NCBI RefSeq assembly: GCF_964355755.1
Contig: NC_092672.1
Span: forward strand, 30,758,437-30,822,436
Direction of reading: 5' to 3'
Length of the DNA stretch: 64,000 nt
From: Antedon mediterranea
Taxonomy: Eukaryota; Animalia; Echinodermata
In this document: positions 1,478 to 54,642 of the stretch, in pieces
Numbering within the stretch: position 1 is the first letter of the stretch
Layout: the number at the start of each line of letters is the position of its first letter
Made by a program: the position numbers and the translations under genes
The notes under the pieces: model-generated
What the model saw: only the letters and a program-made list of their open reading frames with translations
What the model was told of the DNA's origin: nothing
Databases searched by the model: none

Positions 1478-1609
1478 TGAAATCGGTCGCGCTTGAAATC
1501 GGTCGCGTTTGAAATCGGTCGCGATAAAATCAACTTCCAGTATTTTGTATGGCGCGCCGCTAGAGCTATACTTTTGATGATATCGGTCGCGTTTGAAATC
1601 GGTCGCGCT
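1478..1609. repeat. Five copies of 16-bp TGAAATCGGTCGCGNT, probably the subterminal repeats of a MITE-like insertion starting near 1468
   Basis: Units at 1478, 1494, 1510, ~1578 and ~1594. Homology with the paralogous flank (18690-18985) breaks at ~1468. Confidence 0.55.
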
Positions 1610-7839: not shown

Positions 7840-7864
7840 TGATTGTCGGTATCAACCTGGAGCG

Positions 7865-10800
7865 TCACACTTGATTCTGAAAAAGAGAAAAACCGAGAAT
7901 ATATACTTGTATCCATAAATTTATATACTATAGGCTACAATGAATCTAAAATATATCTGTATTATATCTATTTTTTTTAATATCGTCATTGTAAACATTG
8001 TCAATATCATGAAAATGAGAACCAAGTAAAATTTAATAGAGAAAACGAAAAATGATATATGATATAATAAAACTAATAAATTACAAATTGGTTACCAGTT
8101 ATAAACTAATGGTATCTCTTTTTTTTTTACACACAACACAATGTCAGCAGCACCAGTAAAGCATGCATTGTTATTGTTCTTTATTACAAAACATGACATG
8201 TACATTTCCTATTAAATGTAGTAATGCTAAGATAATTTAATAAACCAAATAAAATTACTCCTTACATTTTCCAGCTCTTCAATATTCCTAATCAAGGTGT
8301 TGATATTTTCCTCATATTTTAATGTTTTTAAAAAATCAATATAAAATCTACCAGCAATCAATTGCTGGATTAGTGAATCCCTTTTCGTTTCATATGACTC
8401 CATTTTCAAAGGAATGAACGTTTTGCCGTGCTCCAAAATTCTGTCACATTCTGAATTGTCAAAAAAAAAAGATTTGATAAACAAATTAACATGAAAAATT
8501 GATGATAGTCATTTCTATGAATTTTCTTTATCTTTCTTTTCATTGAAACCCCATTTTTTTCAGTCATCATAGAAAAGAAAATTAAAATGTCTGTATTAGA
8601 GAATGTGTTTGTTACTCTGCTACCTGTAATAAGTTTGTATTTACCGAATTCCCAGTATTCGCTTTCTTCGTAGGCTTTCGATGTACACAATAGAACTATG
8701 CTTGAGTCGCATATAGCTTTATCTAGAGATTGAGACATACGTCCAGACATGGTTCTTTTATCAATACAGATTTTATGTGTATCTTTCAACCTCTTCTTTA
8801 AGCTATTATCAATTAATCCGACAGTCCTAAAAGTGGAAACTTCCGTTAAATATTTATTGTCCCCCAAAAACATGATAATTTGACTTTCAATAGGCCAAAG
8901 TTAATCACTTAAATAAATAAAAACAAAATAAAAAATGTTTTCACTTAAATAATGACAAAACAAACGGTTAAATTTAACCAAAAACCCATTGTCTGACAGA
9001 CAATTAATTTATCTATTTTTGGCTTTAAATTACATTTTTTTCCTTCAGGTAAATCGTTTTTTTTTTTTTTTGTTGGCGTTTCAATTTTTGGTCACAAAGT
9101 GAATAACTATTATTTAACATTAAAATAGCATATTAAAAAAAAAAATGTAAGAAAATGTATTTTTGATAGGGACAGTATATCTTTAAGAATATCTGGAGCA
9201 ATAATTGTGGAATTAAAAAAATATGGAGTTTGAAGGATGGTATTTTCCTAAATTTTTTTGGTATTAGAAAAAAAATGTCAATAAATTCAGTCAAATAAAG
9301 TAAAAAACGATCAACAGTTATTCTCTTACATCTGCTACAAATAATATTATATGTTTTGACAATTACAAAATTAATACAAAAATGCACTTGCCCACTCTGG
9401 TTGTGACTGTAGCTAATCAATATTTGCTTCTGAAAGCAATGAAACAACTCGAATTATGAAACTTGTAATTTAAATAATATTAATATACGATTATTACAAA
9501 TTACAAAAAAATATTGTACGTATATTTCTACCTTTTGTTTTGTTTTCAACATTTCAGGCTGTTCTTTGCTTGTACTCACTGAAATAAAATTTTTTTTTTT
9601 TAAACTGCATTCCACTAGAGCACAGATGCAAAAACGAAAAAGTGCATGGGTGTGAAATATTCTACGTATACTTTACAGTTCTAATTTCTTTTCTTTCTAT
9701 ATCATTAATATATTTACCTCGTGTTCTTTTCTGTTTTGAAGTAGATTGTCCAGAGTCTTAAAATAATATAATAAAATATAGTAATAATATTATTATATAA
9801 ATTTATAATATTATTATATTATAGCGTCATTCCAACGATCATTGCTCATAGCGCTGTGGACTTTGATGTTACAATTTTCAAAAAAATACTTCTCCACGTC
9901 ATGTCAGTGCTGCCAATTCTAGCGTCCATTCGTCTTATCTGTCCACGACAGTGAATGTGTGAGCTAGTACACCGGGGCAACGCTCTACTCGTCTCGAAAG
10001 ACGTACTAGGTCATTTAAAGTGCACACGAGCATTTTGTGTACTCTGGACCTACGATTTATAGTATTTATCGGAGACGACGTAAACATTATTAATTTAATT
10101 TTTTTAATTAAAAAAATTATTATCCGAGAAGACAAGATAAATGAATACTTAACATGATTAATACATTTTTCAGTAATAGTAAGCCTTTAGCAAACTAATA
10201 GAGTATTTTTGTTTACATTTTCAATTTTAAAATTTGAAGAATAAATATTTTCAACCTGAGTTACCATCGTTGTCTGAGGTCGTTAACCTCTGTCTTTTCC
10301 GGGTTCCTTTTGATGCAGATGCTATAATAAAAAAAAGTATATATTTCTTTTTATACAGTATGGTTGTACATTATAAGAGCCTACAAAAACATATTAAAGC
10401 TACATTTTGTTTATAATTAATAATAGTTTTGTCCAAAAAATAAAAATTTAGAGATTTGACTGTTCATTTCTATCAAATCAGTAACAAGCATTAAATGTTT
10501 TATAATTTTTGTAACAATTTTACAGGCTTTCAGTTACTTATATTATCTTCTACAATAATTAACTCTTTCTTTTTCGAGCTCCTGTTAGAGTAGAAACTTG
10601 ATTAGTAATATAATTAAAATAATAATAAATGAGTAAATAGTATATAAATAATGAATGTTTATGAGTGTAATGTTACAACTAATGAGGTGAATGATGAAAT
10701 GTTATATTAATATATAACCTTAATATTGCACGACATGTACCCACAATCGTTCTATGAAATGACAGGAATTTCTTTAGGTGTTATATAATACAGTTTATAC

Positions 10801-11937
10801 ACGTTTACACTTATTGTAAGGTCTTACAACAATATATATTATGCAATGTATATATTATCATATAGGTTGACATAAATAGTACGATAATTAATTACGGGTA
10901 AAGTTTTAATTTCTCAATGTTAAATTTTAATTTGTTTTATTTTTAAATAACATGTTAACCTTTAGAAACAAATTTCATATTTTTTAAACATGTTAACGTA
11001 ATATGCCGAAATAAATAAATAAATCTGAGTCTTAATATGAAAAGCTGTGTGTGAATACAAAGTTAAAAAAGTTAATTACAAAAAAAAAAGAGTTGACATA
11101 TATCTAGTATACATATTTTTTTTTTTAATATATAATAGTTCAAGTTTAATTGCAATGAACTTTGGATGTGAAAACAGAATCAGTGTGTTTTCATGAAATA
11201 TTGGAGACCAAGATACACATAATCAGAAACTTTGAGGGTATGGTATGGGATATTTCCATCTTGACTTTATCATGCCTTTTTTTACTGTCCGTCTAATCTG
11301 TTTTACATGTTTGTATACAATGTATTTAAATTAGAAATGCAATTGTTTTATTTACAATGTTATTATAAAGACATACCGTTTGTGTTTGCAAAAAAATCTC
11401 TTTTGCATCTTCGTCAAGAATCTTTGCAAAATGCTTCATTTTCTCTATGTCACCCTCTTCTACATCGTTATTACCTTCCAGCATAAATACCAAATCCCAC
11501 TTATTTTTAAAATCAGCAGGATTTAAACCATAGTGACCGGGCATCGTTGCTAATAAATCAGTCGTATTTGAGCGTAAAGCTTTGAAGAGATTTTTTCGAT
11601 ATTCTGATATTGGTTTACCTCTTGTAAAATTGTAGTTTTTGTTGTTGTTTTTATGTTTTTGTTTGAACTTCTGTATAATCTGTAAAGCGCGCGTCTCTTT
11701 TGTTACTTCTGCAATGTCTACTAATATTTCTACATCTGTACAGGATGCATCATTAGGCTCGTACGAAATATAACCCATGTCTGTGAGTTGATTAAATAAA
11801 TCGTGTCCTGTGACAATTCGTCTGCTTAACAGTTCTCCAGTACAGTGATCGTATAGTAGAAGTCTTAGCCAAAACAATTTTTCACCTGTATATATTTTAC
11901 TTATATCTGCAAGTAATCCTGGAAATTCGAATGACAT
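7865..11937 (-). CDS. Gene A: tandem-DED / basic-acidic linker / TIR protein (multi-exon, with a 1-nt phase break after the DED exon)
   Basis: Exons: 11937-11377 (tDED: FPGLLADIS..., ISEYRKNLF), possible microexon 10581-10564, 10321-10256 (SKGTRKRQR), 9756-9718, 9578-9532, 9429-9392 (KQILISYSH, GC donor), 8826-8645, 8450-8266 (ECDRIL..FIPLKME..RFYIDF), 7876-7865 (NQV*). Phases are consistent from 10321 onward, but the DED exon ends in phase 0 while the next exon needs phase 1. Confidence 0.75.
9785..10082 (-). mobile_element. 5'-truncated Nin/Deu-domain SINE with L2-like tail (intronic)
   Basis: Minus strand reads GATAAATACTATAAATCGTAGGTCC...GTGCACTTTAAATGACC...TCGAGACGAGTAGAGCGTTGCCCCGGTGT, resembling the Deu/Nin core as I recall it, and ends AGCGCTATGAG...GACGCTATAAT(AAT)n. 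Confidence 0.6.
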
Positions 11938-12719
11938 TTTCTAGAATAACGAAAACAAATTGAAAACAATATTTTACTTCAATTAATAACACGGGGCTTA
12001 TGTGTATTATTTTTCCAATGACATTAAAATGCTAACTTGTATTGGTATGTTCGAACAATAAATTTATGATTTGTTTGTTACCAGTTATCGTTAATTATAA
12101 GTTCCTGGTAAATTCATTTTCTCAAAGCATTAAATTTTTATTATTACTGCATTATTTCTATTGCTAGTATTGTTATTATTATCGTTACAATTATTATGAT
12201 ACATTTTACTGATTTTATTTGTTTATTTATTTACTTTTTTATTTCAAATTTATTCATTTAAAGGGGCTTTGTGTCTAAAGCTTTTGCTTATAGGTTATTC
12301 TATTCAAAACTTCAAATAATTTTGTATTTATTTTGTATTTAATAATATTCAAAAATATAATTATTATATAATTATGTATAATATGAGATTGTGAATAAAG
12401 TAATATATTATAATATATTATATAGAACTATCATAAAAATAGAACGCATCCCATCTGCCCTACTGCTTCTAAAATTTTACCTAAGTTGTAAACATGTTAT
12501 AATAATAATTCAGGTATATTTATTGTCCAAAAACGATCAATGATACAAATAGCCAAAAGGCTGAAACCGTAACATTTTACATTAAAAAGGTTAAAATGTA
12601 TAAGAAAATGTATATATGTAAAAATATATAAAATTAAATATAAAAACAGTAAACGACATTCATATAATTTAACTGAGTTAAAATAAAATCTAATCATTAA
12701 GGAGTCTGATTAGGGCTGG

Positions 12720-13370
12720 AATAGCTGACTTGCGGCGTCTCTCAGTACGACAAAATATATGTGGTATAAACACATACCAAGTCATCTAAAGGAGCATTGC
12801 ATTTACGTAAAATATACAAAATGAAAATGTTACGGGAGGCCCTAGATATAATATCAGCAACATGGGAATCACATTTCAAGTCGCTCTGCAAAGTTACGCC
12901 CATTACCCAAATCGGACCTAGGAACAGTAACATAGCTAACATGCAAGAAGTGAACAACCATAACCATTTCGATGGTATCGGAAGCATGATTATTAGTGCA
13001 CCGGAGTTCAAACTCACTAAGTATACATTGCATAGAGCTGAATAACTACCTTTTTTAACAATCCAATGGTAAGGTCGTCAACATATTTCCATCGCCTGCT
13101 GTTTCCCTCACAAGCATCAATGAGGGTGAGAAAGAGCACAGGCTCCCCAACCTCGTACATTGCGGTACCCCACAAGTAATTTGACGTGTAGATGATATAT
13201 TAGTGCCAATTTTGGAATTAATAACTCTATTAGAAAGGAAAATGCAGACAATGGGTGTGATTGACGGTTTAGACACCAATGGAAATCATCTTATAAATCA
13301 AAACAGTGTGGCCAACGCTTTGGCGAAATATATAGCACAAACATTGACGTTATATATTATTGAAAAGTTA
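12720..13370 (-). mobile_element. Degenerate non-LTR retrotransposon RT fragment
   Basis: Frameshifted ORFs 13055-13279 (ITCGVPQCTRLG) and 12742-13017 (GVTLQSDLK..HV..II.RAS....YILR). Confidence 0.8.
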
Positions 13371-13669
13371 TAATGTGTATGCATTGTAGTCCCTTCGACG
13401 AATAAACAATAATTTTTTCTAAAAGTTTAATCCCATGCATTGGTTTATATTATATTACTGCAAATTGTGTTTTAATAACCGTATGATACACGTTAGGCCT
13501 AAATGTTTAGACGTCCATACGCCTAAGTTCTAAGCGTCCGTAGTAAAATAAATATTAGGTTGGATATAACCGCATGTAGTTAGACTGGATTTCAGATTTT
13601 ATTACACAAAGGTCAAAATATAGATGGGCCTAATATAGAATTAATAATTTAAAGGTTTACACACAATGC

Positions 13670-13910
13670 TTACGGTAAATTTAATACTGTCTCACAATCT
13701 CAATCCACCGACTTTGTTCAGGATACAGACTTAAACCATACAGTATCGTGTTTTTTGTTGTAAAATGGCGTGTCTACCCAGAATCCTCATGAATATGTAA
13801 TAGAATAAATGATGTATTGTCATGACCCACTTCCGTTTAATTCAATTGGAAATTCCAATATGACAAATATAGGCAACTGCTTTGGACAAAAGACTACTAC
13901 TACTACTATC
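13670..13910 (-). promoter_or_regulatory. Putative promoter and non-coding first exon of gene A
   Basis: GTAAG donor at ~13673 (minus), YY1-like AAAATGGCG 13762, ETS-like ACTTCCG 13829 and kB-like GGAAATTCC 13848. The three motifs are conserved in the paralogous copy at ~24150-24330. Confidence 0.4.
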
Positions 13911-14915
13911 TTTATCTCGTTTTATACGGTACAGAGATAAAGCAAAGCGGCCGATTGAGTGAAACCAAAGCGACTTAGGTAAACAGTAGCTTCAGCGGCA
14001 TGGAAATGGAAATTATATTGCGCTCCTTTTGTCCTCGTTATACATAATCATACAATGCTCCTAAAATAGTGCGCCCTCGCGCTGAGAAAGTGTTTGGGAA
14101 ATCGTGCAAGCGATTGATTTTGACCTGGCAATGTGAGTCTGGAGTCTCATAGATATAGGTTTATTCACTAATAATTTAATTTGTTGAATTAATTACTTGT
14201 ATAATATTAATATACAATTGATAATTTTCGCTTTAGATGAAAAAAAAAGTGGGATGAGGGGGGTGGGGGGGAGGGTTATAAGCTCATTAGTGTTCCCGCT
14301 TTGTTTTTCAGCTTTACCTGATTTTTTAAATTCTGTCTCCCATGTTCATTAACCTTATTGATATCATTATTGTTCCCAATTGAATATACTGTACAATAAA
14401 TACAAAGACAAGAAGTACAACTCATTGAAACTTAAATAAAAATGTTTATTGTAAAAATTCTTATTCCTTGCACTCATTTCAAAATGTAAACTATAAAATA
14501 AATTGTCTATAGGCGTTAAGTAAATCTAAAATCTAAAAAAATCACAGTTATAGTACAATAGTAAAAATCCCTTGATTACAGTATGCTCTATTCTATTATT
14601 TTGAAGAAACTTTGTTGAATGATCGTTTTTGTTGAATGTTCGGAAAATAGGTTCAAACTCCAAATAATTTATTTTCTATGAAGATTAGGTCAACTATAGA
14701 ATAGTATACTGTTTTGTTATATGGCCATAGCGTGAGGTAATGAAACAAAATATAAGGATAATTTTCTTACAATCTGAGTCTCATGGTGGGATGATCTTTC
14801 TCTTAATAACCTCTGAGTAGTGAGACTCTTTCTTGGTGGATAATTTAAAATACCATTCATTTTAAAAATGTAATTCTGTCCTTCATTCCGACATCTAAAT
14901 TCTACCTGATCTAGT

Positions 14916-18079: not shown

Positions 18080-19118
18080 CTTTCGTGCTCTACAAACACA
18101 AAAAAAACACATGTACTGTATATAATGTTTTGTTAAGTAGCCTAACCGTATCTGGTTATACATTTCAAACAATATTACCGTGATAGATTAATAAGATTTA
18201 ATCAGGCAATTTTTACGGGACCTGGGTAATTAATATAGTATATTTTGTATACATCCATTATGTTATGTGAGATGGGTATCAATATGACCACAATTGTCCT
18301 ACTGGGAAGGTTTAAACTACATTTGAAACTTCAACTAAATCTCCTAACAAAAAAGAAAAAAATGATAAAAACAAGATGGATTGTAAATAAGTTGAATTAT
18401 AGTCGTATTCTTGGCCTTAGCACTATTGTAGATATCGACCTGACCATAATTATATATCGACGCCTAAGCTAAAATTGCTATTCGCTTTATTGACAACAAG
18501 CATCCTGTATTCTACTGTCCCGAATCAGACAATAATAGGTAAGTTACTATTATTAAATCTACCTAATTTTCCTCTTTTAAATTACAGATATGAGTTAAGA
18601 TAGATGAATGTGCAATTTCCATTCTGGAAAATTCAATAGAAATTATGTAACTTACTTTAAATATAAAGCTGATACAGCTACGTCGTCATTGTCTAAATTT
18701 ACTGAGAAAGAAGGACGCGGTAGTTTATGGCGTGGGTTGATTGCCCGATACGTATGAGAAGATTATAACAATAAAGTATGTTAATAGCCTGGTGTATAAT
18801 AAGCAACACAACCAGGTCTCTATATAAAATCATTTAATGTTAGATCCGTATAAGAATAAAATTGATATGGACTTTGAAATTGAGAAGAATCTAACATTTA
18901 GCTGCAAAGATTTCACCATCGAACATTCATTCACGTTTTTAGACGTATTGTAGGCCAAGTTCTAAGCGCCTCATGGTATTATCATGTTGGCAACACATGA
19001 TCACATCTTTTAGATTTAGACTGTTTTTTAAATTGATTTTTACACAAAACTCAGAAAGCAAATAACATACCTAATATAGAATAATTAATTTAAAAATTGT
19101 ATAGACAATGTTCACTGT

Positions 19119-20409
19119 CTACTGTGCCACAAGGGAACATCCTGGGACCACTCCTGTTCCTCATCTACGTGAATGATATGCCTATGTCCGTCTCATCATT
19201 GTTAATGCAATATGCTGACGATAGTGCAATTGTCAATGCTCATCATGATCCTGATATCATCAGTAAAAATCTTGCTAGGGATCTGTCTAATTGTAATAAA
19301 TGGTTAATTGACAATAATTTATCACTTCACATGGGAAAAACTGAACTAATGTTGTTTGGTCCCAGGATGTCTCTCAAGAACTACACAAATTTTAGCGTCC
19401 TTTACAATGGCTATACAATTTCTTTGAATAGCTCTATAAAATACCTTGGTATCGAACTAAGCAATAGGCTTAATAGTGAATTAATTGTCTCAACAGTTAT
19501 TAAGAAAGTTAATGGTCGTATTAAATTTGCGTATAGGAATTGTCGTAACTTTGATCGCTGTATTCGTAAACTCATAATGGAAGCCCTGGCTCTAAGCCAT
19601 ATAAATTATGCTATATCATCCTGGTACTGGGGTACAACCGCGGATTCCCGTACTAAACTTCAAAGAACACAAAATAAAGTAATTAGATTCATCTTAGGGA
19701 AACATAGTAGATACCATATAACCAAAGACGATTATACTTTTCTTGGTTTATTAGATGTTAAAACCAGGGCCGAACAAATGACACTACAACACGTACAGAC
19801 AATATATACAAAAAGTTGTCCAGACTTTATGTTAAATAATTTTAATAGGATAAATCATAACCATGGTACTAGAGGTAAAGATTGTAATTTTATTGTTCCA
19901 ATGAATAACTATACTGTTAGTAAGACCTTTTTTTTTAATGCAATCACACTGTGGAACAAATTACCAATAGAAATAAAAAATATTTTTACACACAATAGTT
20001 TTAAAAGGACTCTTAAGAAATTTTTATTAACAAATATGCAAATTATATAGACCTAAAATTATGATTGACTTTTCTTGTAAATAATGGTAGATATTTTTGT
20101 AATAATAATGATTATCAGAATTCAGCATAAATCTAACATGTAATTAAATTAATTTGTAATACTGTATAAAATAATAATAGATTCATATTTTTGTATAATT
20201 ATTGTAATATTATTTTATTATGTTGGGGACCCCTTTGGAAACAAGCCTCTGGGCTTAAAGGGCCATCCCCTGCTTTCCATGCTTATTTTCTTGTCTAGTC
20301 TTGTATTTTTATATTTAATTGTTTCTCTTTTTATTTCATTTACATTATACTGTTTTATTTATTTGTACTGTATTTGGAAAGCAATAAATATTACTTACTT
20401 ACTTACTGT
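19119..20409 (+). mobile_element. 5'-truncated CR1/L2-group LINE (RT C-terminal part, ORF 19097-20050)
   Basis: VPQGNILGPLLFLIYVND, YADD and IKYLG motifs; AATAAA plus (TTAC)n tail; probable ACTGT TSD. Confidence 0.9.
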
Positions 20410-20465
20410 AAGTTTAATCCTGTCTGTTTATTCACAACCTCAATCCAACAATTTCTTTTAGAGAT

Positions 20466-20937
20466 TGTCACGAACTCCTCTTACGTATGTTTCCGAGCGG
20501 TTGAAAATACTTTAGGAACTCCCTTGTGACATAAAAGTATACACACAAAATCCACAAAGTTGTAAGATAACTCAAAAACAAAGCTTTAATTTCAATCAAC
20601 TTCAACTTTCAACAATCCAGTAAGCACTTTAAACAACAGCTTCACAATGACTTTACAATATAACATCCAACCTCTAATCCAACCTCTAATCCAACCTCTA
20701 ATCCAACAACCTTACAATAGTTTACATCCCTTTATATACAAGATGCTCCTATCCTTCTAGATCATTCTTTATACTTCTCATTATTACATGATTACAGTTT
20801 CTATTAATAGCACTTCTGGAATGTTCTTGATTGTTCTTATTAATTATACATGGTTTATTAAATCAAAACATCTTATTCTAGAATGTTCATGTAAATACTA
20901 TGTTACTCTATATGTTAGGGAATGGTAATTTATTACA
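20466..20937 (-). repeat. 3' LTR
   Basis: Direct repeat of 23662-24133, preceded on the minus strand by a PPT. Confidence 0.95.
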
Positions 20938-21010
20938 CTCCCCCCTCTTTCTGAGCTCAAAACTCTTTCTTGGAGTTTTGAGGGGCAAGTATACACGGAC
21001 GTGGCAAAAG

Positions 21011-23272
21011 TTAACCCACTCCTATTCTATAAAACTTAAATACGCCATAATAACATACAACATAATCATTAATAATTACTAATAATGAACCAACAATATT
21101 CATGTAAATTTGTCGGAATGGTTCACTAACAATTACTGACATAGGAATCACCGGGGCCTTCAATTTGGTTTTATACTTTGAAGTTTTCTGGCAATTTTCA
21201 CAAGTGTTGCAATATTCGGTCACATCCTTTCTAATACCAGGCCAAAAGAATCTCTGCTTTATCCTATCTAATGTCTTTTTCCTACCTAAATGACCTGCCA
21301 AAGGAATATCATGTGAGACTTTCAATACACTATTACGGCAAGGGTATGGAACCACTAATTGCTCTATTGGTTCTATCTGGTGTTTAGTGAAAACCAGCCT
21401 AAATAAAATTCCATCCTTACAGACTATCTTTATAGTGTCATCATCCTTCTGTACTAACATCTGTTCTCGAAGTGAAATTAAAGTTCTATCCTTAACCTGA
21501 TAATCCTTAAATTTATCTCTGCCAATATCTAAAATGTCTAATTCACTATCTTGGCTAGATTGAGCTTCCTTTGTTTTTGCAAACTCTTTCCTAACTTTTC
21601 GTTTCTCACTTCTGGTTTTATGAACTTTTTCCTTGGGAGGGTTGTCACTGAGTATTTGGCCATCTAAATGTCCAAATTCTTCTTGAAAATTAACCACATC
21701 ATCTAACTGATGTGAAATAACCCCAGAAGCTTTTTCCGACTTTAATTCGTTTTCCTCTCTTAGTTTTTCTTTTCTAGCATGATCTCTAGTGGCAACAAAA
21801 CTATGCCTATCATGATTCTTATCCCCCTTCCCTAATAAGTCTCTAAATTTAGGAAAGTCCCTACCAAGAATTACATCTCTTGGTAAATCGCTGCAAACGC
21901 CAACCAACAAATTATGGTCTTCGTTATTAACCTTAATATTGACGAATGCAGTAGGATAGGCTTGGACATGGTCATGGACGCACCTGCATGTAATTTTAGC
22001 TTGCTCCGCGCGATTAATTTTCTTAGCCGCTACTAAATCAGAATGAACAAGTGTCATATCACATCCAGAGTCTATCAAAATTTCACAATCACATCCTTCA
22101 ACTAGGCCTCTACAAATGTAAGGTGTACATGGTTTTGAAACAGTATCTGTTTTTGTCGACAAAAAGCCATCCTTACTTCGACAAAATCGTTCTATGTGGC
22201 CTACTTTTTTGCACCGTCTACAAACGAGAGGTTGTCTAGCGTCAGATTGTGATTTATGAAAGTTATCAGGGGGATTATTATTACCCTTACTGTCAACTTC
22301 AGGAGTGCCTTTCACTGTTTTCTCCTGGTTGTTTCTATTTTCGTGTTTTCTATTTTGAAACTTTTTCTCAAAATCGATACCTTTTCTAGCTTGAAAATAA
22401 TTATCTGCTAATTCCGCAGCATTTAATCCCGAATCTGGTTTATGTTCTTTAACCCAAATTTGTACCCCTGTGGGCATAATATCTATCAATTGCTCTAAAA
22501 TAACAATTTCAGCTAAATCATCTTTGCTTTTATCAGCAGGCCTAGCCCACTTAGTAAATAAATCTTTTAACCTAACATACATTTCTCTATAACTTTCTTC
22601 ACTTTTCTTTTTAATTGACCTAAACCTTTGCCTATATGTCTCTTCAGTTATGTCATACCTTTGTAATATTGCTTTCTTCACTATGTCGTACTGGTTACTT
22701 TCTGTCACTGGTAGTGATGCATAGGCTGCTCTTGCTTTGCCTGTCAAATGAGGTATTAGTTTTACTACCCAGTGTTCTTTTCGCCACTCATAGGTGTTAG
22801 CAATACGTTCAAACGTAGTGAGATAATTTTCAATATCATCACTATCAGAAAGCTTTGCAATCTGAACTTCCTTCAATCTCATTATGTCTTTTAATCGTTT
22901 CTCCTCACTGTCCTTTTGCTTGTCCATTAACGCCATTACTAATGCTTGCTGTTTCTCCATATCTTCCCTACGTAAACGTTCTTGTCTTTCCATATCTTCC
23001 CGACGTCTTTCATTATCTTCTTGACGTGAACGTTCTTGTTGTTTCATCATCTGCTGCATCATAATATTCTGCTGTTGCATTTGCTGCTGCATCAACAACA
23101 AAAAATCTTTTGAAAATGAGTCAGCCCCTGTAGGGTTATGTCCACTGGTTGGTCCAGACTCTTCTGCCTGTTGTTCAGGTTGAATTGATTGAACTGATTC
23201 TACATCCGAATCAGTTTCATCGCCGCCGCTGTATTCTCTACCGGATCTTGTTGTTGATTGTTTATCAGCCAT
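21011..23272 (-). CDS. Gag (SCAN-like capsid, CCHC knuckle) - aspartic protease - truncated integrase polyprotein, 753 aa
   Basis: DDIENYLTTFERIA..W, ETYRQRFR, CRRCKKVGHIERFC, LIDSGCDMTLV, then the integrase Zn-binding region (H..LAGHLG..KT..RFFWP..C.TC..CQ) directly after the protease. No RT or RNase H. Confidence 0.92.
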   Translation of the reverse strand: MADKQSTTRSGREYSGGDETDSDVESVQSIQPEQQAEESGPTSGHNPTGADSFSKDFLLLMQQQMQQQNIMMQQMMKQQERSRQEDNERRREDMERQERLRREDMEKQQALVMALMDKQKDSEEKRLKDIMRLKEVQIAKLSDSDDIENYLTTFERIANTYEWRKEHWVVKLIPHLTGKARAAYASLPVTESNQYDIVKKAILQRYDITEETYRQRFRSIKKKSEESYREMYVRLKDLFTKWARPADKSKDDLAEIVILEQLIDIMPTGVQIWVKEHKPDSGLNAAELADNYFQARKGIDFEKKFQNRKHENRNNQEKTVKGTPEVDSKGNNNPPDNFHKSQSDARQPLVCRRCKKVGHIERFCRSKDGFLSTKTDTVSKPCTPYICRGLVEGCDCEILIDSGCDMTLVHSDLVAAKKINRAEQAKITCRCVHDHVQAYPTAFVNIKVNNEDHNLLVGVCSDLPRDVILGRDFPKFRDLLGKGDKNHDRHSFVATRDHARKEKLREENELKSEKASGVISHQLDDVVNFQEEFGHLDGQILSDNPPKEKVHKTRSEKRKVRKEFAKTKEAQSSQDSELDILDIGRDKFKDYQVKDRTLISLREQMLVQKDDDTIKIVCKDGILFRLVFTKHQIEPIEQLVVPYPCRNSVLKVSHDIPLAGHLGRKKTLDRIKQRFFWPGIRKDVTEYCNTCENCQKTSKYKTKLKAPVIPMSVIVSEPFRQIYMNIVGSLLVIINDYVVCYYGVFKFYRIGVG

Positions 23273-23591
23273 TTTTTAAATCTGGATGAGGGTCTTGTTA
23301 CTAGTTAATCGTAGTTACCGAGACGTTCACAAGTCTACTGTTCCAAATAAATAATGTACTGTTCTTAAAACAATGTTTGTGTACTTACGATTAAACAAAA
23401 CGTAGCACCACGGCTTCCGTAAAATATCTCAGTATCGTAAGTACCACTTCCTCAAAATATCAATAAAAGTACAGTTGATCCTAAACAGCCACCAATCTAT
23501 GGCAAAATACAGTAGATCAAACTGCTACCACAAAATCTCACAACAGTACTGTAGATAAATACACAGTTAAGTCGAACAGTAGATCGAAATA

Positions 23592-23661
23592 ACCGCTGCC
23601 ACCAAATTAGGCTGAACACCGCTGCCACCAAATTAGGCTGAACACCGCTGCCACCAAATTA
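23592..23661 (-). repeat. Triplicated primer-binding site (26-bp period), tRNA-Leu-like
   Basis: ACCGCTGCCACCAAATTA at 23592, 23618 and 23644, matching a tRNA 3' end ...ACCGCTGCCA-CCA. Confidence 0.85.
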
Positions 23662-24133
23662 TGTCACGAACTCCTCTTACGTATGTTTCCGAGCGGTTGA
23701 AAATACTTTAGGAACTCCCTTGTGACATAAAAGTATACACACAAAATCCACAAAGTTGTAAGATAACTCAAAAACAAAGCTTTAATTTCAATCAACTTCA
23801 ACTTTCAACAATCCAGTAAGCACTTTAAACAACAGCTTCACAATGACTTTACAATATAACATCCAACCTCTAATCCAACCTCTAATCCAACCTCTAATCC
23901 AACAACCTTACAATAGTTTACATCCCTTTATATACAAGATGCTCCTATCCTTCTAGATCATTCTTTATACTTCTCATTATTACATGATTACAGTTTCTAT
24001 TAATAGCACTTCTGGAATGTTCTTGATTGTTCTTATTAATTATACATGGTTTATTAAATCAAAACATCTTATTCTAGAATGTTCATGTAAATACTATGTT
24101 ACTCTATATGTTAGGGAATGGTAATTTATTACA
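23662..24133 (-). repeat. 5' LTR
   Basis: Direct repeat of 20466-20937, adjacent to the PBS. Confidence 0.95.
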
Positions 24134-24334
24134 GAGATAGGCCTACAGTTACATAAACCATACAGTATCGTTTTTTATTTAAAATGGCGTATCTACCCAG
24201 AATCCTCATGAAATGAAAATAGAATAACATTTGATGTATTGTCATGACCCACTTCCGTTTAATTCAAATGGAAATTCCAATATGACAAATATATATAGGC
24301 AACTGCTTCGGACAAAAGACTACTACTATAATAG

Positions 24335-25063
24335 TTGTACACAAAATGATAGGAATATTCCTCAACTGGAACGATGTTATATCGCAGGCGTCGTAAACTA
24401 AACACCAAAATAGTTACTAATCAAACGTTATTCTTAGCACATATACAGCATCATGCTTTATGTTATTAATTCTGTTAAATATAAAAATGTTGAGGCTCTA
24501 ATCTTTCCTTCTGTACGTTTAGCGACGCTTCTATACCAGTCTTTCTTCGAAGTGCAGGCTAGTTTAATAATACTAGTCTTTTAACTTTTAAACTTTTTTA
24601 AGTGATCAATAATATGTCAAACATAAGTTTGTGCGATTGTATTTTTAATAAACTAATGTAAAAGATAGTGTCAAAAGAAATGTACGTTTTAAAACGATTA
24701 GATATGCAATATTTACATAAACTATTTACTTAAAGCAAAGAGGGACGCGTTAGATGTGAGAGGTTATCGCGTTTGTTAATCACCTAATCACGTATGATGT
24801 CAGCTAGTAGCTATTATTGTTAGCTATGTCATTTTTTTTTATAAATATCTATTTACTCAAAGCAGGGAAAAGAGGGACGTATAAGCTATAAGAGGTTATG
24901 GCGTTGGTTGATAACAACGTATGATTAGTTTTTAACAATAAACTACCGCATTATTAAAGGTGTATACTGAATATGTAACTTCCGATAAACTTGTTTAACA
25001 ACGTAAACATTGAATGTGCACGTTGAAATAGATAGCGAATGCTGATCAGACAATAATAGGTAA

Positions 25064-25095
<32 letters not shown>

Positions 25096-28000
25096 ATCTA
25101 CCTAATTTTGCTTTTTTAAATTACAGATATGCGTTAAGATAGATGAATGTGCAATATGCATTCTGGAAAGTCTGAATAAATATATCTAACTTACGTTTAA
25201 ATATAAAGCTGATATAGCTACGTCGTTATTGTCTAAATTTACTGAGAAGAAGATCGCTGTAGTTTGGCGTGGGTTGATTGTCCCGATACGTTATGAGAAG
25301 ATAAACAACAGTCAAGTATGTTAATAGACTAGATGTATATATTACTAAGCAACACCACCATAATTCAAATAAACGGTATTACTTTCGGTAGGCCTTTTAT
25401 TACCTTTTGGACACAACACAAGTAGTATAACTATCTAGAATATGATTGCTACATCTGTAATCATCACGATTTCATTGTTTATTGTTCGAATGTTTTGTGT
25501 TAAAGGCACACGGAATCTCAGGTCACGTTCAGCTTACAACAACAATTGCAGGGAACATGACGATAAACAAGACTTTAAAATTGAGAAGAATTGAACATTT
25601 TAATTAGCAACAAAGATTTCACCATTGAAAACTGTCATGGCAGAAAAAGTACATAATAATTATTATAATTATGATTTATGCCTTGCCTCACAAAAGAAAA
25701 AAATATAAAAGATAGTATTACGCAATGAAAGAAGATATCGCAAAAAATGAAAATATGAAATAAAAAAAAAAAATTACACAATTAAATGAACTTGGCAACC
25801 AAATTAAAAGCCGTACGGTAGTACGATAGTTCATTGCTTGGCCGTACTCTAAGTAAGTCTAGGCCAACATGTAGTGGGTAATATAGTCACCTTGTACCCA
25901 AACCAACTCGTACCCATTACATTTGTTGTGAAGATGGTAAAGTAAATGTGCGAGCCTGTTTAAATTTGTTTCGGAGCTCTTTAATAGTGCGAACCCTTCT
26001 AATTGGTGAGCTCTTTAATTGTGCAACGAACCCTTTTGAATTTTGGGCTCTTTGAGGTTTTTATTTTTATTTTTTCTTCTCATTAATGATGCTTTACAGT
26101 TACGAGCCACTATAACATCATAAGCCAGGTGCCTCTAAAAAATACTTGTTTTGTTATTTAATATTTGGTGTTACGAGAGATTATATTTATGACAGTAGCA
26201 AATGGAAGCAGATAATAAGACAAAACAAATAAAAATGTAACAAAGCCTATATATAATTATTACTATATTTTAATTTAAAAGAAAACCCTTAACAAATTAA
26301 TGAGTATACAAAGACTAATCTACTTCAAAATAATATGGTGTAGGTTTACATGGCAAACGTTTAACTTTAAGCTAATCTACTTGAATAAAAACAAAACGCT
26401 GAAAAATATTAGGCCCTAAATGAAACTGCTAATAATAAAAAAGAAACAAAGTCTGTTTCTATATTTATAAAATCTAGTATAGATCAAAACAGAATATACT
26501 GTATAGAATATGACACTATTTAGCTTCCTTTAGCTATAATACGTTTAATAAACTTAGGAGAAACTTTAAACAAATAGTAATAATCTACATCGTTGCCAAC
26601 AATCAACTTTTGTACTAAACTTAATCAAGTGCACCGAACTCAATCTACTATCAAAATCACAATGGTATTACATATAAAAAAAACACACATTTTTCAAATA
26701 TAATTTAAAACAATTTACATTATATTCAAACTGTTAAAATTGAGGTATAGTTTAATAACCAACTTTACGATCGATTTATCGGCAATAAGGTAATAATATG
26801 GTTTCTTTGATCTGTATTTCAATGATTGGTTGAAATCAATTGGTACTTTCAATTTTATTATTGTAGGTACTAAATTGATACCTTAAATATTTGTAATATA
26901 TCTACCAGTTTGAGCAGCAGTGTTAACGTTTTCTAACTTTTCCTGAAATTACCCATTTGTTAGTTTGCTTTGTAGGCATTGGATGCATGCATGTATGTTT
27001 ATCATAGCTGATCGTCGGTACCAACCCAGACCATCACATTTGATCCTGAAAAAAAAAAAACGGAGAATATACACTTTTATCCATATATATTACTATACAA
27101 TGGGTCTTTAAATAAATTTTTTAGATTGTTTTTGTTTGCATCCAAAAGGACAAAAAAACATGTAATTTATTTATTTAAAAAAGCAATATAAGATTTACTA
27201 AACAATAAATTATTTTATTTGTTTAAATATCGTCATTGTTAACGTTGTCATTATCATGAAAGTGAGAACCAAGTAAAAATGATAAATGATATGAAATTGT
27301 TGGTAACTGGTATATAAACTAGTATCTCTTTATTCTTTACTTAGGTGCTACACATTTCCATCAGCAGCAGTAAATCATGCATTGTTATTGTTCTTTATTA
27401 CAAAACATGACATGTACATTTCCTATTAAATGTAGTAATACTAAGATAATTTAATAAACCAAATAAAATTACTCCTTACTTTTTCCAGCTCTTCAATATT
27501 CCTAATCAAGGTGTTGATATTTTCCTCATACCTTATTGTTTTTGAAAAATCAATATAAAATCTACCCGCAATCACTTGCTGAATTTGTGAATCTTTTTTC
27601 GGTTTATATGACTCCATTTTCAAAGGAATTAACTTTTTGTCGTACTCCAAAACTTTGTCACATTCTGAAAATAAAAATGATAAACACATCAACATGAAAT
27701 ACATTGACAATTGTTATTTCTATGAATTTTCTTTATCTTTCAATTCATTGAAAACCCTATTTTTAGTCAGTTATACAAACAATTAAAATGTCTGTAGTAG
27801 AGAACGTGTGTATTACTCTGCTACCTGTAATAAGTGCGTATTTACCGAATTTGCAGTATTCGCTTTCTTCGTAGGCTTTCGAAGTACACAATAGAACTAT
27901 GCTTGAGTCGCATATAGCTTTATCTAGAGTTGTAGACATACGTCCAAACATTTTCCTTTTATCAATCCAGATTGTATGTGAATCTTCCAACCTCTTCTTT

Positions 28001-29290
28001 AAGCTATTAACAATTAATCCGACAGTCCTAAAAGTGAAAATTTCCGTTAAAGATGTATTATTCCTCAAAAACATGAAAAACGAAGATTAATAAAACCACA
28101 CTTTGAATAGGCCATGTTGTAGTTTTAACAAAGTTAATCATTTTCATAGAAAAAAAATAATGTTTTCACTTATAAAATCATAAAACAAAACGCTTAAATA
28201 TAATCAAAAACCCATTGTCTGGAATACCGTACACATGGCGATCCAATTTTTGGTCAAAGTGAATAAGTATATGTGAAATTAAAATGGAATATTCAACAAA
28301 CAAATTTTAAAATATTATATTTTCAGGGAAAAATATATCTTTAAGTTTATCTGTAGCAATTAATCATGGAATAAAAAACATAGGGAGTTTAAAGGTATGG
28401 TATTTTCCTCAAACATCTTATTTTTATAGATTGAAAGTGCTAGAATTATTATCTATTGATTGTTTAAATTACATATACTTTTAATAGGATTTAAGGCATT
28501 GAAAGGTTACTGCCCTCATTCTTTCAATGAGTATTTTAAACTAGTGAAAGTTAGCTTTTACGTTGGAATTCAAAAGGCAATACTTTTCATAATTCTGTAT
28601 TATTATTATTATGAATTATTAAAGTTTCACAAACAATTTAAATATTTAAGGCTGCTCTAACGAAACACTATTTATTTCATGTTGTGTATTTATTTGTATT
28701 ACAATTGTTTAATTTTCTTGTATACGGTTTTATCTTAAATGATTGTACAATATAGAGTGAGTGCATAATCTGTTTGAGCTTTTCTCACTCATGGTTATTT
28801 TTTCATTGGCGACTGAATAAATATTATTATCATTATTATTATCGTCATCGTCATCATCATCATTATTATTATTATTAAATGTGTTGGAATATTAGAAAAG
28901 AAATGTCGATAAATTCAGTGGCTTATTTAAAAACAATCAGCAGTATCAACTGCTAATAATAATTGTATGTTTGGACAATTATAATTTTAATTATATTAAC
29001 CAAATGCACTTGCCCCCTCTGTTTCTGACTGTAGCTAATCATTATTTGGTTCTGAAACAAAAAAAAACTCGTATTATGAAACTTGTAATTTCAATAATAT
29101 TAATACATTTTTTGTTATAAAATATTATCTATTTATACCTTTTGTTTTGTTTCCAACTTCTCAGGCTGTTTGTTGTTTTTATTTTCTGAAATCAAAAATA
29201 TTTGCATAAATGCATTCCATTAAACCACCAGATGCAAACAAAAAACTGCATTCTAACCATAGATGTGAAATATTCTACGTATACTTTAAT
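24335..29290. repeat. Segmental duplication block, paralogous to ~1985-9670
   Basis: Colinear similarity including the TIR exons and 3' flank; lacks the HINE and the 41-bp array. Confidence 0.9.
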
Positions 29291-32200
29291 GCCTTATTTG
29301 GCATAATTGAAGTTTTATAATGGTTGTATTGTTTGTTCTTGCAAAGCAAAAAATAGTCACATTGTTAATAGGCAAAATATCGTACCTTTGCTTTTGCAAT
29401 TAATAGCAATATAATAATAATAACTATAATAGGCAGTCAAAATCTCGAAGCCCTTGAAGTCATCATACGATTTAAGAGCACAGTAGGCCTAAGCTGAATA
29501 GTGTTTTTAGTTTTACTCCCATAATAAGTGCATATCTGTAAACCATGTATTAGTTGATATCTTCAATAAAAGAATGTGCACTATGCACTTAAATAAGAAA
29601 ATATAGCCTACCTCAGTAGGCTATAAAGGTAAAATACCTTCTTTAGATGTTATAAAGACAATAGGTATCCTAGCCTAGGCCTACTGTGTCTTTTCAAACA
29701 TGTAGGCCTTTCAATCTGAATAAAATGAAAAGAATCTACTACTAGATGTATTTATAACATAAATAATGAATGTTTTTATATTCTTGTGATTGTACAAATA
29801 ATTTAATGAGGTGAAATATCAAATTCTTTTTTTCACTTGGGCTTTTCCTCATGAAAATAGAATGTCGTATTTCACCTCATGAATTTATTTGTACCATCAC
29901 ACTCATAAACATTCATTATTTGAATAATAACCTGCGTTCTCTCCTTCATCAGATTCTTCTGAATTGTCTGCCATCTTTCTTTTACGAGTTCCTTTTGAGG
30001 TGAGTGCTATAAGAAAGAAATTTAACAGTGGTAATAGCCTATCAAATGTATAGTCTACCAGGGTTTTGTTTAATGTATCGTTATGGTATAGTAATATTAA
30101 TTTATGGAATACCAATATTTACCTCTTTTCCCCTTCATTTTTGGAGTATAAACTTCGTTGCTATCGTCAGAGTACCCTGATGCAAATAAGATCACAATTT
30201 AACAGTAATTAAAAGGTAATTTCATTAACCTAATGTGTTATTTAAATGTTTGATATTTAAAACTGAAACCAAAAACAGACTTGATAATAAATTTAATAGC
30301 AAAACTGTTTTTGTGTTCCTGTAGTAACACAATAATATTATTAATAATAATAATAATTAAAGTAGACGTTTTATTTTCGTTAAAGTTTTAACCTGAGTTC
30401 TCTTCTTCGTCATATTCTACTGATGTAAGTGTTGCCTTCCCTCTTTTAGAGGATTTTGAAGCAGGTGCTATAATAAAGACAATGTAATAATGCAATAAAA
30501 TCAAATATGGGGTCAGTAGGCTATGATTTATTTTTACTGTAGGTATACGTTAGTATAAAACAGAAATACTCAATTTTTTGCATAAATTTCATTATTATTA
30601 AATATTATCTGTTCAATTCCCAATAAAGTATAAAGACAATAGGTATCCTAGCCTAGGCCTACTGTGTCCTTTTAAACATGTAGGCCTTTCAATCTGAATA
30701 AAATGAAAAGAATCTACTACTAGATGTATTTATAACATAAATAATGAATGTTTTTATATTCTTGTGATTGTACAAATAATTTAATGAGGTGAAATATCAA
30801 TTTTTTTTTTCACTTGGGCTTTTCCTCATGAAAATAGAATGTCATCTTTCACCTCATGAATTTATTTGTACCATCACACTCATAAACATTCATTATTTGT
30901 ATAATAACCTGCGTTCTCTCCTTCATCAGATTCTTCTGAATTGTCTGCCATCTTTCTTTTACGAGTTCCTTTTGAGGTGAGTGCTATAAGAAAGAAATGT
31001 AACAGTGGTAATAGCCTATCAAATGTATAGTCTACCAGGGTTTTGTTTAATGTATCGTTATGGTGTAGTAATATTAATTTATGGAATACCAATATTTACC
31101 TCTTTTCCCCTTCATTTTTGGAGTATAAACTTCGTTGCTATCGTCAGAGTACCCTGATGCAAATAAGATCACAATTTAACAGTAATTAAAAGGTAATTTC
31201 ATTAACCTAATGTGTTATTTAAATGTTTGATATTTAAAACTGAAACCAAAAACAGACTTGATAATAAATTTAATAGCAAAAACTGTGTTTGTGTTCCTGT
31301 AGTAACACAATAATATTATTAATAATAATAATAATTAAAGTAGACGTTTTATTTTCGTTAAAGTTTTAACCTGAGTTCTCTTCTTCGTCAGATTCTACTG
31401 ATGTAAGTGTTGCCTTCCCTCTTGTAGAGGATTTTGAAGCAGGTGCTATAATAAAGACAATGTAATAATGCAATAAAATCAAATATGCGGTCAGTAGGCT
31501 ATAAAGGTAAAATACTTTCTTTAGATGTTATAAAGACAATAAGTATCCTAGCCTAGGCCTACTGTGTCTTTTCAAACATGTAGGCGCTATGATATATTTT
31601 TACTGTAGGTATACGTTAGTATAAAACAGAAATACTCAAATTGCATAAATTTCATTATTATTAAATATTATCTGTTCAATTCCCAATAAAGTATACGTTG
31701 TAAATACAGAAATAAAAAGACATCGAATTTGAATTATTGACAATACTTGAGTTATTAAAATGGCAAAACATACCTTTAAGACCACTTTCCTTCAGCTCTT
31801 CAATAATTTCGTCAAAGTTGTCTTCATCTATTTTACCTCTGCATTTTTCAAGATCAAATAGCATATCCCAGCGGTCCGAATATGGTTTCGTAGGATAATT
31901 AAATAGTCCGTTGATTTTATGAACGTCCTCGTCCGATAGGGTAGAGAAAAATTTCAGTACTCTTTGTCGGTGCTGTGTAAACGATGAAACCTCTGCATTT
32001 GAAAACGATGGCAGCAGGTTTCCAAGCTCTCCTCTCAGTCCATCTTGATCGGTGGTGGTAATCGTGTCGTGCAGAATTATAAGATTATTCCGACTTAGTT
32101 TTCCAGCATCATGTAATGCATTTAACAGAACTATTGTTCTTTTTTCTTTATTATTACTGAACGTTGCGTTATCCAATAAGTCAATGCACGTACATTTGAG

Positions 32201-35038
32201 TCTATTGAATAATCCCTCGTGACGGCGCTTGTCATACCAGGCTGAAAATTTTACTTTTAACTTGCTATACTCGCCCTCTGATACACCTTATAAAACAAAC
32301 AAATATAGAGTAGAAACTATTGTTACATTGATGGTGGTTGAATTCCATAGAAAACCTTAGTTTTAAACAAATCATACAATGATCAATATTAACAAATCTA
32401 ATAATTTTTTTGATAAATATTACCCTTGTAACACCTAATTTAATTGTAGTTCTTACCCTGTAATTTTATCGCCAAATGAGGGAAAAAAGGTCTTATAAAA
32501 TAATTGCTATTGATGTAGTCCTAGTAGGGCCTATAAATGGGCCTTTAGATTTAAAAAGCGTATTTAAACTGACCATGGTTTATCATTCAGATAGGCTGGT
32601 GATAAAAATCATCACGTCGTTTTAATGATTTAAGTAATATACAACGTAGGCCTACTTTTAATAAGTTTAGAATTTTAGAAATATGAAATTGATTCCCTTA
32701 TTTTTAAATACTCAAGTATTCTATTTATTTTATTATCAATTATTTAGGTCTGCATTTTGAAAAAAAAAATAGATCAATAAAATTACACAACATGCTTTAA
32801 AGTACCGCAAAAGCATTCTTACAATAAAAGAATTGGTTACTAATTTCTCTATCAATTCTAAACTACGGTGTTATTGACCCCCTTAACAACAACAAGTGTT
32901 CTATGTTGAGTGACGATGAAATAACTAAATTACATGATGATGCAGACTAAAAAAAACAACAACAAAATAAAAATGGTAATACGACTAGTTTATGTTTTAC
33001 ATGTGTTACCTGTTTTCTTTTTTTTGTTACGTATTCTTTTTGTAGTTGAGGCTATATTAAAAAAACAATAACATTTTTAAAAATGTAATAATGCAGAACG
33101 GACAGCGTGAGAGCGCGGTGAATTACTATTTTATCGGTGAAAGACCGTAACTAAGCAAACGAGACCCCCTTAACAACAAGTGTTCTATGTTGAGTGACGA
33201 TGAAATAACTAAATTACATGATGATGCAGACTAAAAAAAACAACAACAAAATCAAATATGCGGTCAGTAGGCTATAAAGGTAAAATACCTTCTTTAGATG
33301 TTATAAAGACAATAGGTATCCTAGCCTAGGCCTACTGTGTCGATTCAAACATGTAGGCCTTTCAATCTGAATAAAATGAAAAGAATCTACTACTAGATGT
33401 ATTTATAACATAAATAATGAATGTTTTTATTTTCTTGTGATTGTATAAATAATTTCATGAGGTGAAATATCAAATTCTTTTTTCTTTCGGCTTTTAATTA
33501 GCACTACTTATATGTGTTTATGGTGCATGGTGCCAACATCAATTCTGGCTCAATGAAATGTAGGGCTAGTTTTTGCAAAGTATTTTATAGGCATCTGTAT
33601 GGTCACTTTAGATATATTGTACCTTGTGGATTGACTGGCAGTAATTCGGAAGTCTCTGTAAGCCTACCATCTGACAAATCTGTAAAAAGAGAAAAATAAA
33701 TAATAGTACCTTATAGCTACATATAGTAGATAGTTCATATTATACAACGCCAATGGAACAACTCACTTCCCTTATTACTTGGAATAACGAATGTTTAGAA
33801 AGATATCAATCTAATCCATTGGACTTGTTTAGTAAACAGCGACGTTTACATACTAAACTGAATACTACCTGGATGAATGAGAATATTCATATCCGTAATG
33901 TATGTATAGAAACCCATTGTTTTGTTAATCTGTCTGATAAAATACATCTTATATGATACAGCTACTAAAGATTAAAATTGTAACATCGATAAATAACTGA
34001 TTACTAGTTTCAAACAAGACACTAATTTTGCCGCAAAAAGCTCAGGTAAAATCCGTTATTCACTGAAATGGAAATTTGAAGAAAGACAGTTTTACAAAAT
34101 GGCAGACCATTCAAAAACGAAGTAAAAACTTGATTGAGGTGTAAGATTACTTGAAAAGAGAGAAAGAAAAAAAAAATTAATAATATTAATTATAAATAAA
34201 TTAGAGAGCCAGTTTCTCTCTGTAAAAGAATAATTTAATAGAATAATACCACACAACCAAATACTGTAGAGCTAGCAAAACAGTTGTTGGAGGAGCATGG
34301 TCTTAACATCTGAAGTTGGCTCCAAATACGAAGAGGGAAGAAGTAACAAATATAATATAATAATTTTAATAATATGACTCAAATTAGAAGGAACAACAAA
34401 TAATTTCATTTATGATACAAAACAATCAAGTAATCACAAGCCGATTTTTCATTTACATACAGATCGTATACCAAAAAGAACACAAATATTGCTCTAATTT
34501 AAAGTTTCTTTGCCGTTTTTGTTTTGTGTATTGTTCTATATAAACATCTATTTGAACACAGATATTCAAAATTATAAAAAAAGGTCTTCTTCAGCATTAA
34601 GATAATTTTTTTTATTTGTTTGACAAGTCATTCCAATTTTAATTTATTTATTCAAATAAACATTATTACTGATACAGGTCTAAGTTCTACATCTACACAT
34701 TTCTACGTAAATAATTACAAGGTTCTTGGACACTTTGTTTTCAGTTTTGTCACGAGAGGATGTTAATCATTAATATAAAATGTACTTGTTCAAGACCTAT
34801 ACATCTTTAATTTGGTAATCACTCACTTCAATCATGAATTTCCAACATAAAACTCCACTCAAAAAGCCCTTTCAATAACTTTCGTTAGATATTGTTTTTG
34901 TTAAATATAAGTGGCATTACATACCTGGTATTGAACTATGCAGTTCTCCTAAATCTTCTGTTGATGAAATTCTCGACGGTCGGTTAATTTCATGTATTTG
35001 TTGTGGAACAAATGTAGGCGTAACATGTCCTACAGGGG
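27034..35038 (-). CDS. Gene C: tandem-DED / expanded basic-acidic linker / TIR protein (5' end unresolved, may extend to at least 52574)
   Basis: Phase-compatible exons 35038-34925, 33679-33623, 32286-31774 (tDED), 31445-31371, 31153-31100, 30983-30909, 30467-30393, 30176-30123, 30006-29932, 29185-29139, 29051-29014 (NQIMISYSQ, GC donor), 28027-27846, 27664-27480, 27045-27034 (DQM*). No internal stops. Confidence 0.82.
29655..31680. repeat. ~977-bp tandem duplication of a three-exon linker module within gene C
   Basis: ORFs 29903-30115 and 30880-31092 are near-identical; exons are offset by 977-978 bp. Confidence 0.92.
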
Positions 35039-54434: not shown

Positions 54435-54518
54435 AACAATAGCCTATTGTATACGACTTCCTGATGACTCACTTCTATTAAGCACTATGAGACAACTGTG
54501 TCACTTATGTTTTATATT

Positions 54519-54574: not shown

Positions 54575-54609
54575 TTAAAACAATGAAGTAACCAAGTTTT
54601 CTGCTGTTA

Positions 54610-54642
<33 letters not shown>

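Follow-up and report, generated by a model that had tools for sequence, protein, structure and literature searches.

A 64,000-nucleotide stretch of the Antedon mediterranea genome (NC_092672.1, positions 30,758,437 to 30,822,436; hereafter the window), with the composition of AT-rich animal DNA, contains three minus-strand genes, which we call A, B, and C. They share a common architecture, with a tandem death-effector module (tDED) encoded by one exon, a linker made of micro-exons, and a TIR domain (Table 1). The linkers are low-complexity, and the TIR_2 domain is spread across three exons in each gene. B and C match RefSeq protein models of A. mediterranea. A tblastn search found no other A-type or B/C-type tDED exon within the window, and thus neither B nor C has a second, A-like tDED here. 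An earlier, sequence-only reading had proposed that all three genes are mosaic paralogs, with A and C sharing the TIR half and B and C the DED half. Our comparisons indicate that only A is chimeric among the three, through one or two events. We think it probable that A combines a tDED from a distant subfamily with a TIR half and 3′ flank recently copied from the C lineage, that the hybrid is now decaying, and that B and C are ordinary old paralogs. Unequal recombination within a phase-1 linker intron is the likely means by which the halves of A were joined.

The predicted structure of the A module is confident (predicted local distance difference test score, pLDDT, of 91), and its best fold match is the caspase-8 tDED, with a template-modeling (TM) score of ~0.7. 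Profile searches also matched the module to the tandem DED of caspase-8/cFLIP (E 8.5e-5), with which it is predicted to share the same two-DED fold, although identity is 17% and A has no caspase domain. Single-sequence Pfam DED scores fall below the curated cut-off. Judging from the model, we conclude that the A module is a true tDED of two packed death-effector folds; the modules of B and C are taken as tandem DEDs by homology. TIR_2 scores above the curated Pfam cut-off in B and C, and TIR profile matches include TIR-1, a SARM1 chimera, Cat1, and plant TIRs.

By blastn, the 8487 bases of A between 1189 and 9675 include 5062 that align to 18124–29288, at 81–96% ungapped identity, and the 3′ flank accounts for 3364 of these. 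This shared block starts sharply, at 9675 in A and 29288 in C, and then takes in the TIR exons, their introns, and the 3′ flank. Nucleotide identity between A and C is 87–92% in the TIR exons and 76–87% in the introns, and both genes use a GC donor (a GC-AG intron) after the first TIR exon, where B has GT. The TIR proteins of A and C are identical at 104 of 135 positions (77%), compared with 60/134 for A and B and 61/134 for B and C (both 45%); over the 76 synonymous sites, synonymous divergence (dS) between A and C is 0.09, with dN 0.11 and dN/dS ~1.2. As the sequence-only reading had claimed, the TIR exons, introns, and 3′ flank of A and C are therefore alignable and the TIR of B is distant. 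Both block starts lie inside phase-1 introns, again as proposed, and neither is more than ~25 bases away from the lower limit of its predicted range (9700–10400 and 29300–29900); the crossover between DED and linker is placed only approximately. A match of 10638–10711 to C was rejected as shared descent, being a high-copy repeat by read depth.

We also considered whether A and C resemble one another as a haplotype duplication. Sequencing run X1 comes from another sample, and runs X2–X4 come from one sample, possibly the one assembled. X1 differs from the window at 2 of 165 bases in an A TIR exon and at 10 of 531 in the B DED exon. Allelic difference is thus 1–2%, compared with ~10% between A and C, which rules out two haplotypes.

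The tDED proteins are grouped differently. B and C are identical at 72 of 164 positions (44%), whereas A matches either at only 22–25% (41/165 with B, 36/163 with C), and the four tDED motif patterns named in the sequence-only reading are all present in B and C and all absent from A. To place these halves in a wider family, we used the best 150 of 2145 proteins from a profile search (representatives at 50% clustering, E ≤ 0.001). From 155 proteins, 174 tDED modules and 44 TIR domains were cut out, isoform duplicates were removed (3 tDED and 3 TIR rows), and the truncated TIR of P0017 was added by hand. The tDED trees have 171 rows (FastTree) and 36 rows hand-picked from those 171, and the TIR tree has 42 rows.

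In both tDED trees the modules split into the same two deep subfamilies. B, C, P0019, and P0009 group together in the first (100/98), where the sister of the C DED is P0019 (73% identity, same chromosome), followed by P0009, a NOD-like receptor (NLR), and then B. The A tDED lies in the second subfamily (15 rows, 100/100) as sister to P0005 (XP_071940978.1; 78% identity; 100/99, starred, in the 36-row tree), which is located on another chromosome, on a contig of 40.9 Mb compared with 39.0 Mb for that of the window genes; the end branch of the A tDED is short (0.14, compared with a median of 0.43). In the 36-row tree an A+C DED clade is rejected by the approximately unbiased test (p-AU 2e-76), as is placing A with the B/C group (p-AU 4e-6); constraining the B and C DEDs together is borderline (p-AU 0.046). 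In the TIR tree the branching order is (B,(A,(C,D))), with every node starred, and the same test rejects grouping the B and C TIRs as a clade (p-AU 0.003). Thus, the two halves of A have different closest relatives, P0005 for the DED and C/D for the TIR. Incongruence between DED and TIR trees had been set beforehand as the test of recombination, and incongruent trees, with an A DED that is not long-branched, are what we obtained. P0011, a protein of Anneissia, combines a first-subfamily (type I) tDED, placed beside the B/C group (93/93, not starred), with a related TIR; agreement of P0011, B, and C on a type I tDED suggests that the B/C arrangement is ancestral and A derived.

B and C are diverged to the same extent in both halves (DED 44%, dS 1.5; TIR 45%, dS 1.3). 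Because of this, and because the C DED is nearer to P0019 than to B, we see no recent exchange between them; their shared DED is not more recent than their TIR, as a reciprocal swap would predict. The proposal of mosaic paralogs therefore survives for A but not for B and C, which look like ordinary old paralogs.

Gene A is not only chimeric but probably broken. The donor that closes its DED exon, at 11377, is in phase 0, whereas its linker exons are of the phase 1-1 type and the DED exons of B and C end in phase 1. Neither this phase-0 end nor the equal divergence of B and C in both halves figures in the sequence-only reading. The P0005 protein reads on in frame where A breaks (the intron position being deduced from the protein), and loss of one base in a short A-run of the A DED exon would explain the clash. 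With all exons spliced, translation of A stops at 199–205 amino acids and the halves are not in one open frame. RefSeq has isoforms X1–X4, with consecutive accessions, one of them DED-only (237 amino acids, running into the L1 stop) and three TIR-only (145–155 amino acids). Searches of proteins of 102–328 amino acids (7992 best candidates) and 329–2000 amino acids returned no fused A protein, and no A DED-linker junction occurs among the 15 of 76 joints listed from the sequencing runs. Contigs of runs X2 and X3 (one sample) cover 11136–11624 without gaps and with the same letters as the window. Finally, the A TIR alters a Trp conserved in 37 of 37 other rows and a Cys conserved in 39 of 39 (changes W33C and C71W), the Cys being next to the catalytic-position Glu. 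Out of frame and lacking two otherwise invariant residues, A is more probably a hybrid in decay than a new combination that works.

Table 1. Features of genes A, B, and C, in positions of the window.
Feature	Positions	Strand	Details
A 3′ flank	1189–7864	-	Aligns piecewise to 18124–27104
A TIR half	7865–9578	-	Exons 9578–9532, 9429–9392 (GC donor), 8826–8645, 8450–8266, 7876–7865; P0010
A phase-1 intron with A-side start of A/C block (9675)	9579–9717	-	blastn, alignments
A linker exon L2, phase 1-1 type	9718–9756	-	Also open in frame 0
A linker exon L1, phase 1-1 type	10256–10321	-	Holds stop codon when read in DED-exon frame
A possible 18-nt linker micro-exon, uncertain	10564–10581	-	Splice signals in sequence only; absent from RefSeq models seen
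A tDED exon, second subfamily (type II)	11377–11937	-	ATG start, phase-0 GT donor at end; P0004
Gene B, 9 exons, intact, 413 amino acids	14916–18079	-	Spliced model identical to P0001 / XP_071944412.1
B first exon; B tDED exon	18079–18064; 17701–17171	-	tDED of type I, phase 1-1
B linker exons	17005–16898, 16428–16354, 16145–16092, 15855–15809	-	
B TIR exons	15647–15610, 15408–15230, 15109–14916	-	
C 3′ flank, up to first exon of B	18124–27033	-	Piecewise homologous to A 3′ flank; LTR and LINE insertions between
C TIR half, intact	27034–29185	-	Exons 29185–29139, 29051–29014 (GC donor), 28027–27846, 27664–27480, 27045–27034
C phase-1 intron with C-side start of A/C block (29288)	29186–29931	-	blastn, alignments
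C linker	29932–31445	-	Three-micro-exon unit in two copies, 98.4% identical
C tDED exon, type I, phase 1-1	31774–32286	-	P0002
C upstream phase 1-1 exons	33010–35038	-	33051–33010 and 33679–33623 in P0002; 35038–34925 from splice signals only

How might such a gene have arisen? We propose that the ancestral gene of the cluster carried a type I tDED and that A is the derived form. Linker micro-exons homologous between the two gene types would have served as the crossover substrate. The join would have begun in frame, with phase 1 meeting phase 1, and would have been broken when one nucleotide was later lost from the short A-run ending the DED exon. With every exon included, the message would now yield a tDED-only product of 199 amino acids or be degraded. 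The linker of P0005 is homologous to the 54-nt micro-exons of C and of B (0 of 2000 shuffles each, with 11 exons tried) and matches A L2 weakly (p 0.017), so a P0005-like donor could supply tDED and linker in one crossover at 9675–9717.

Several observations weigh against this account, either as to the history of A or as to its decay. The linker exons of A are no nearer to those of C than to those of B (in global alignments, L1 is 73% identical to the homologous exon of B and 62% to that of C), so that two events, or a replacement on the side of C, may be involved. Because runs X2–X4 are one sample, and possibly the assembled one, the frameshift may be a single allele. Of 24 exon-skipping combinations, 4 give an open tDED-TIR frame, of 325–344 amino acids, all by omitting L1 and the 47-nt exon, and RefSeq isoforms X2 and X3 already make one of these two omissions, that of the 47-nt exon. 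A weak GT at 11373, four bases downstream of the A DED donor, would restore phase 1. There is no excess change in the A tDED relative to P0005 (14 vs 12 derived sites) or in the A TIR relative to C when polarized by B (9 vs 7 changes). The A TIR also keeps the Glu at the presumed catalytic position, and its exon 3 is present in run X1, which we guess to be RNA.

These points bear differently on the alternatives. A could be an older gene with a type II tDED, a linker, and a TIR, in which gene conversion or unequal crossover subsequently homogenized the TIR half and flank with the C lineage; this would take two events, with C possibly the recipient. The linker of A, collinear with that of B and no nearer to that of C, fits this history, as do the sharp identity switch at 9675/29288, the presence on the same chromosome of P0019 (sister to the C DED), for which no TIR is annotated, and the recent rearrangement of the C linker region. 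However, one crossover is enough given that P0005 already carries a linker exon belonging to this family, and identities of 78% for the A DED and P0005, 77% for the A and C TIRs, and 73% for the C DED and P0019 indicate a like depth that fits one burst. We consider the two-event history unlikely but a serious contender, and it too makes A a chimera. A history with no recombination at all, in which the trees are congruent and the A DED has merely evolved fast, has the low pairwise identity as its one point in favor; it is refuted by the short A branch, by a sister in the other subfamily, and by the rejected A+C clade. Nor do we give much weight, at very low probability, to the junction in A being an artifact of assembly or gene prediction. 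Such artifacts inflate counts of domain shuffling in lancelets (excerpts of PMC4967905), and among the contigs shown none spans 9675 by 31 bases on both sides, a gap that counts against our account as well. Still, contigs of run X2 cover 9117–9682, 9660–10670, and 11136–11624 with 0 differences, RefSeq isoforms link DED to L1, L1 to L2, and L2 to TIR, and the chimera result rests on genomic exons rather than on a predicted fusion.

The remaining alternatives concern whether A functions. A might be a working young chimera, making an in-frame tDED-TIR by exon skipping or from another allele, or keeping the frameshift as a tDED-only decoy resembling short cFLIP. Its tDED exon has no stop, is predicted to fold as a tDED, and shows no rate excess; in-frame skipping routes are available, and the locus appears to be transcribed. 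On the other hand, an in-frame fusion is not among the proteins found and the TIR lacks its two invariant residues. Early stops trigger nonsense-mediated decay, and the stop in A, far upstream of later junctions, favors that fate as a matter of general knowledge. We regard a working A as rather improbable. Less probable still is a broader view in which A is a live and recent rewiring whose splicing yields either a tDED decoy or an in-frame tDED-TIR effector, within a large crinoid plug-in system of one-exon tDEDs and phase-1 linker micro-exons that rewires outputs (TIR NADase, NLR, Roc/COR, caspase, RIG-I, kinase) by intronic recombination. Our preferred explanation remains a chimera in decay.

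Other features of the window lie around these genes. In the A 3′ flank, a 41-bp tandem repeat of ~20 copies occupies 7020–7839 and is single-copy in the C flank, at 26977–27008. Segments 13724–13902, upstream of A, and 24144–24328, just past the A/C block, are 89% identical and may mark the boundary of a duplication unit. Contigs of run X1 stop at the exon borders of gene B. The spliced model of gene C equals P0002 except in the first exon. Besides the duplicated unit of the C linker, a 220-bp intron piece (97.7%) is also found upstream of the C DED exon, and a very recent rearrangement appears to have occurred around that exon (29613–33495). Between C and B, a Gypsy-type long terminal repeat (LTR) element at 20466–24133 has 472-bp LTRs that are 100% identical and an open reading frame for SCAN-gag-protease, with pol cut short; it is a very recent insertion. 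The frame at 39652–42786 (-), an open 1044-amino-acid endonuclease/reverse transcriptase, is presumably a long interspersed nuclear element (LINE), and we take segments at 37392–39573, 43196–44099, and 53475–60011 to be LINE and Penelope-like fragments, names given on the basis of motifs. Positions 1–1190 are an inverted copy (79–93%) of 35668–36709 joined to 44383–44528, in a duplication that passes the left end of the window; this copy represents the upstream region of C in its state before the LINE insertions.

Five tandem 330-nt exons of phase 1-1 lie at 44781–52574 (-), encoding proteins 92–98% identical to one another, and four of them are preceded by a small linker-like micro-exon. They match the region of P0005 after its linker at 17 of 37 residues (E 2e-9) and have no Pfam family and no Atlas match. 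A partial unit at 35271–35680 suggests that these exons may belong to the 5′ end of gene C. As they also lack a TIR profile match (probability 0.4) and their structure model is unusable (pLDDT 45), a TIR-like reading was not adopted.

The wider family pairs tDEDs with many partners. In a Pfam scan of 97 matches (61 top-ranked and 36 hand-picked), 16 have NACHT and 15 have Roc or COR, with caspase, Rel homology, RIG-I helicase, kinase, UCH, OTU, NHL/B-box, TPR, and ubiquitin in one or a few each. Among the proteins cut for the trees, TIR stands before, after, or between tDEDs. Species assignment covers 17 proteins, and the ten of the scanned matches among them are all crinoid (6 Anneissia, 4 Antedon). 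The remaining matches are gene predictions, which can fake fusions (excerpts of PMC4967905). A broken near-copy of C (P0017, P0143, P0156; 95–97%) lies on the same chromosome outside the window, is modeled only in pieces, and has a TIR without 32 residues that include the catalytic-position Glu. The sequences point to a history of birth-and-death with shuffling. The sequence-only reading had inferred combinatorial diversification, which fits poorly at this locus, where the sole chimera is out of frame with all exons included and its TIR lacks invariant residues, and better across the family, where tDEDs occur with many unrelated domains. Its assignment of the DED as input module and the TIR as output module is a putative one.

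Phase 1-1 domain-exon shuffling is known from lancelets, as described in sections of PMC4284660. Both there and here, phase 1-1 domain exons or linkers form new pairs by subgenic rearrangement; what differs is that the present case comes from a crinoid and traces a single event to an intron, with the donor lineage named. The main text of PMC4284660 mentions DED or TIR 0 times. TIR and death-fold domains are shuffled in amphioxus innate immunity (excerpts of PMC2575513 and PMC2858798), which shares with the crinoid family a lineage-specific expansion with new combinations. A passage of PMC2575513 contrasts amphioxus with sea urchin, with about six TIR combinations; the crinoid family is an echinoderm one with a promiscuous tDED. 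The excerpts of these two papers do not describe a tDED-TIR architecture. In lophotrochozoan RIG-I-like receptors, N-terminal "domain grafting" includes gain of a DED exon (excerpts of PMC8998645), and sibling paralogs near-identical in body likewise differ in an N-terminal death-fold exon. However, the body of gene A is a TIR rather than a helicase, one tDED subfamily replaces another, and the product is now out of frame. The literature searched, which omits most subscription papers, listed no study of crinoid tDED-TIR genes.

We conclude that gene A illustrates cleanly the exon shuffling already known from invertebrates and does not represent a new mechanism. It offers an unusually well-resolved snapshot of immune-domain shuffling, in which the donor and recipient lineages, the phase of the intron, and the approximate breakpoint can all be seen, and it is free of the prediction artifacts that cloud counts in lancelets. 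Damage is the usual fate of shuffling products, as A also shows, and this tempers claims of combinatorial diversity drawn from lists of architectures. The TIRs of these genes resemble SARM1/TIR-1-type (Pfam TIR_2) NADases in their TIR_2 domain and catalytic-position Glu, making NADase activity putative, but A, B, and C have a tDED in place of ARM or SAM domains. tDEDs form filaments, and SARM1-type TIRs cleave NAD+ when clustered. By analogy, intact B and C are likely adaptors or effectors in which tDED oligomers would cluster a SARM1/TIR-1-like TIR. The crinoid tDED family, with its intact B and C, thus provides better targets than A for asking whether DED oligomers could switch on a TIR enzyme in animals.

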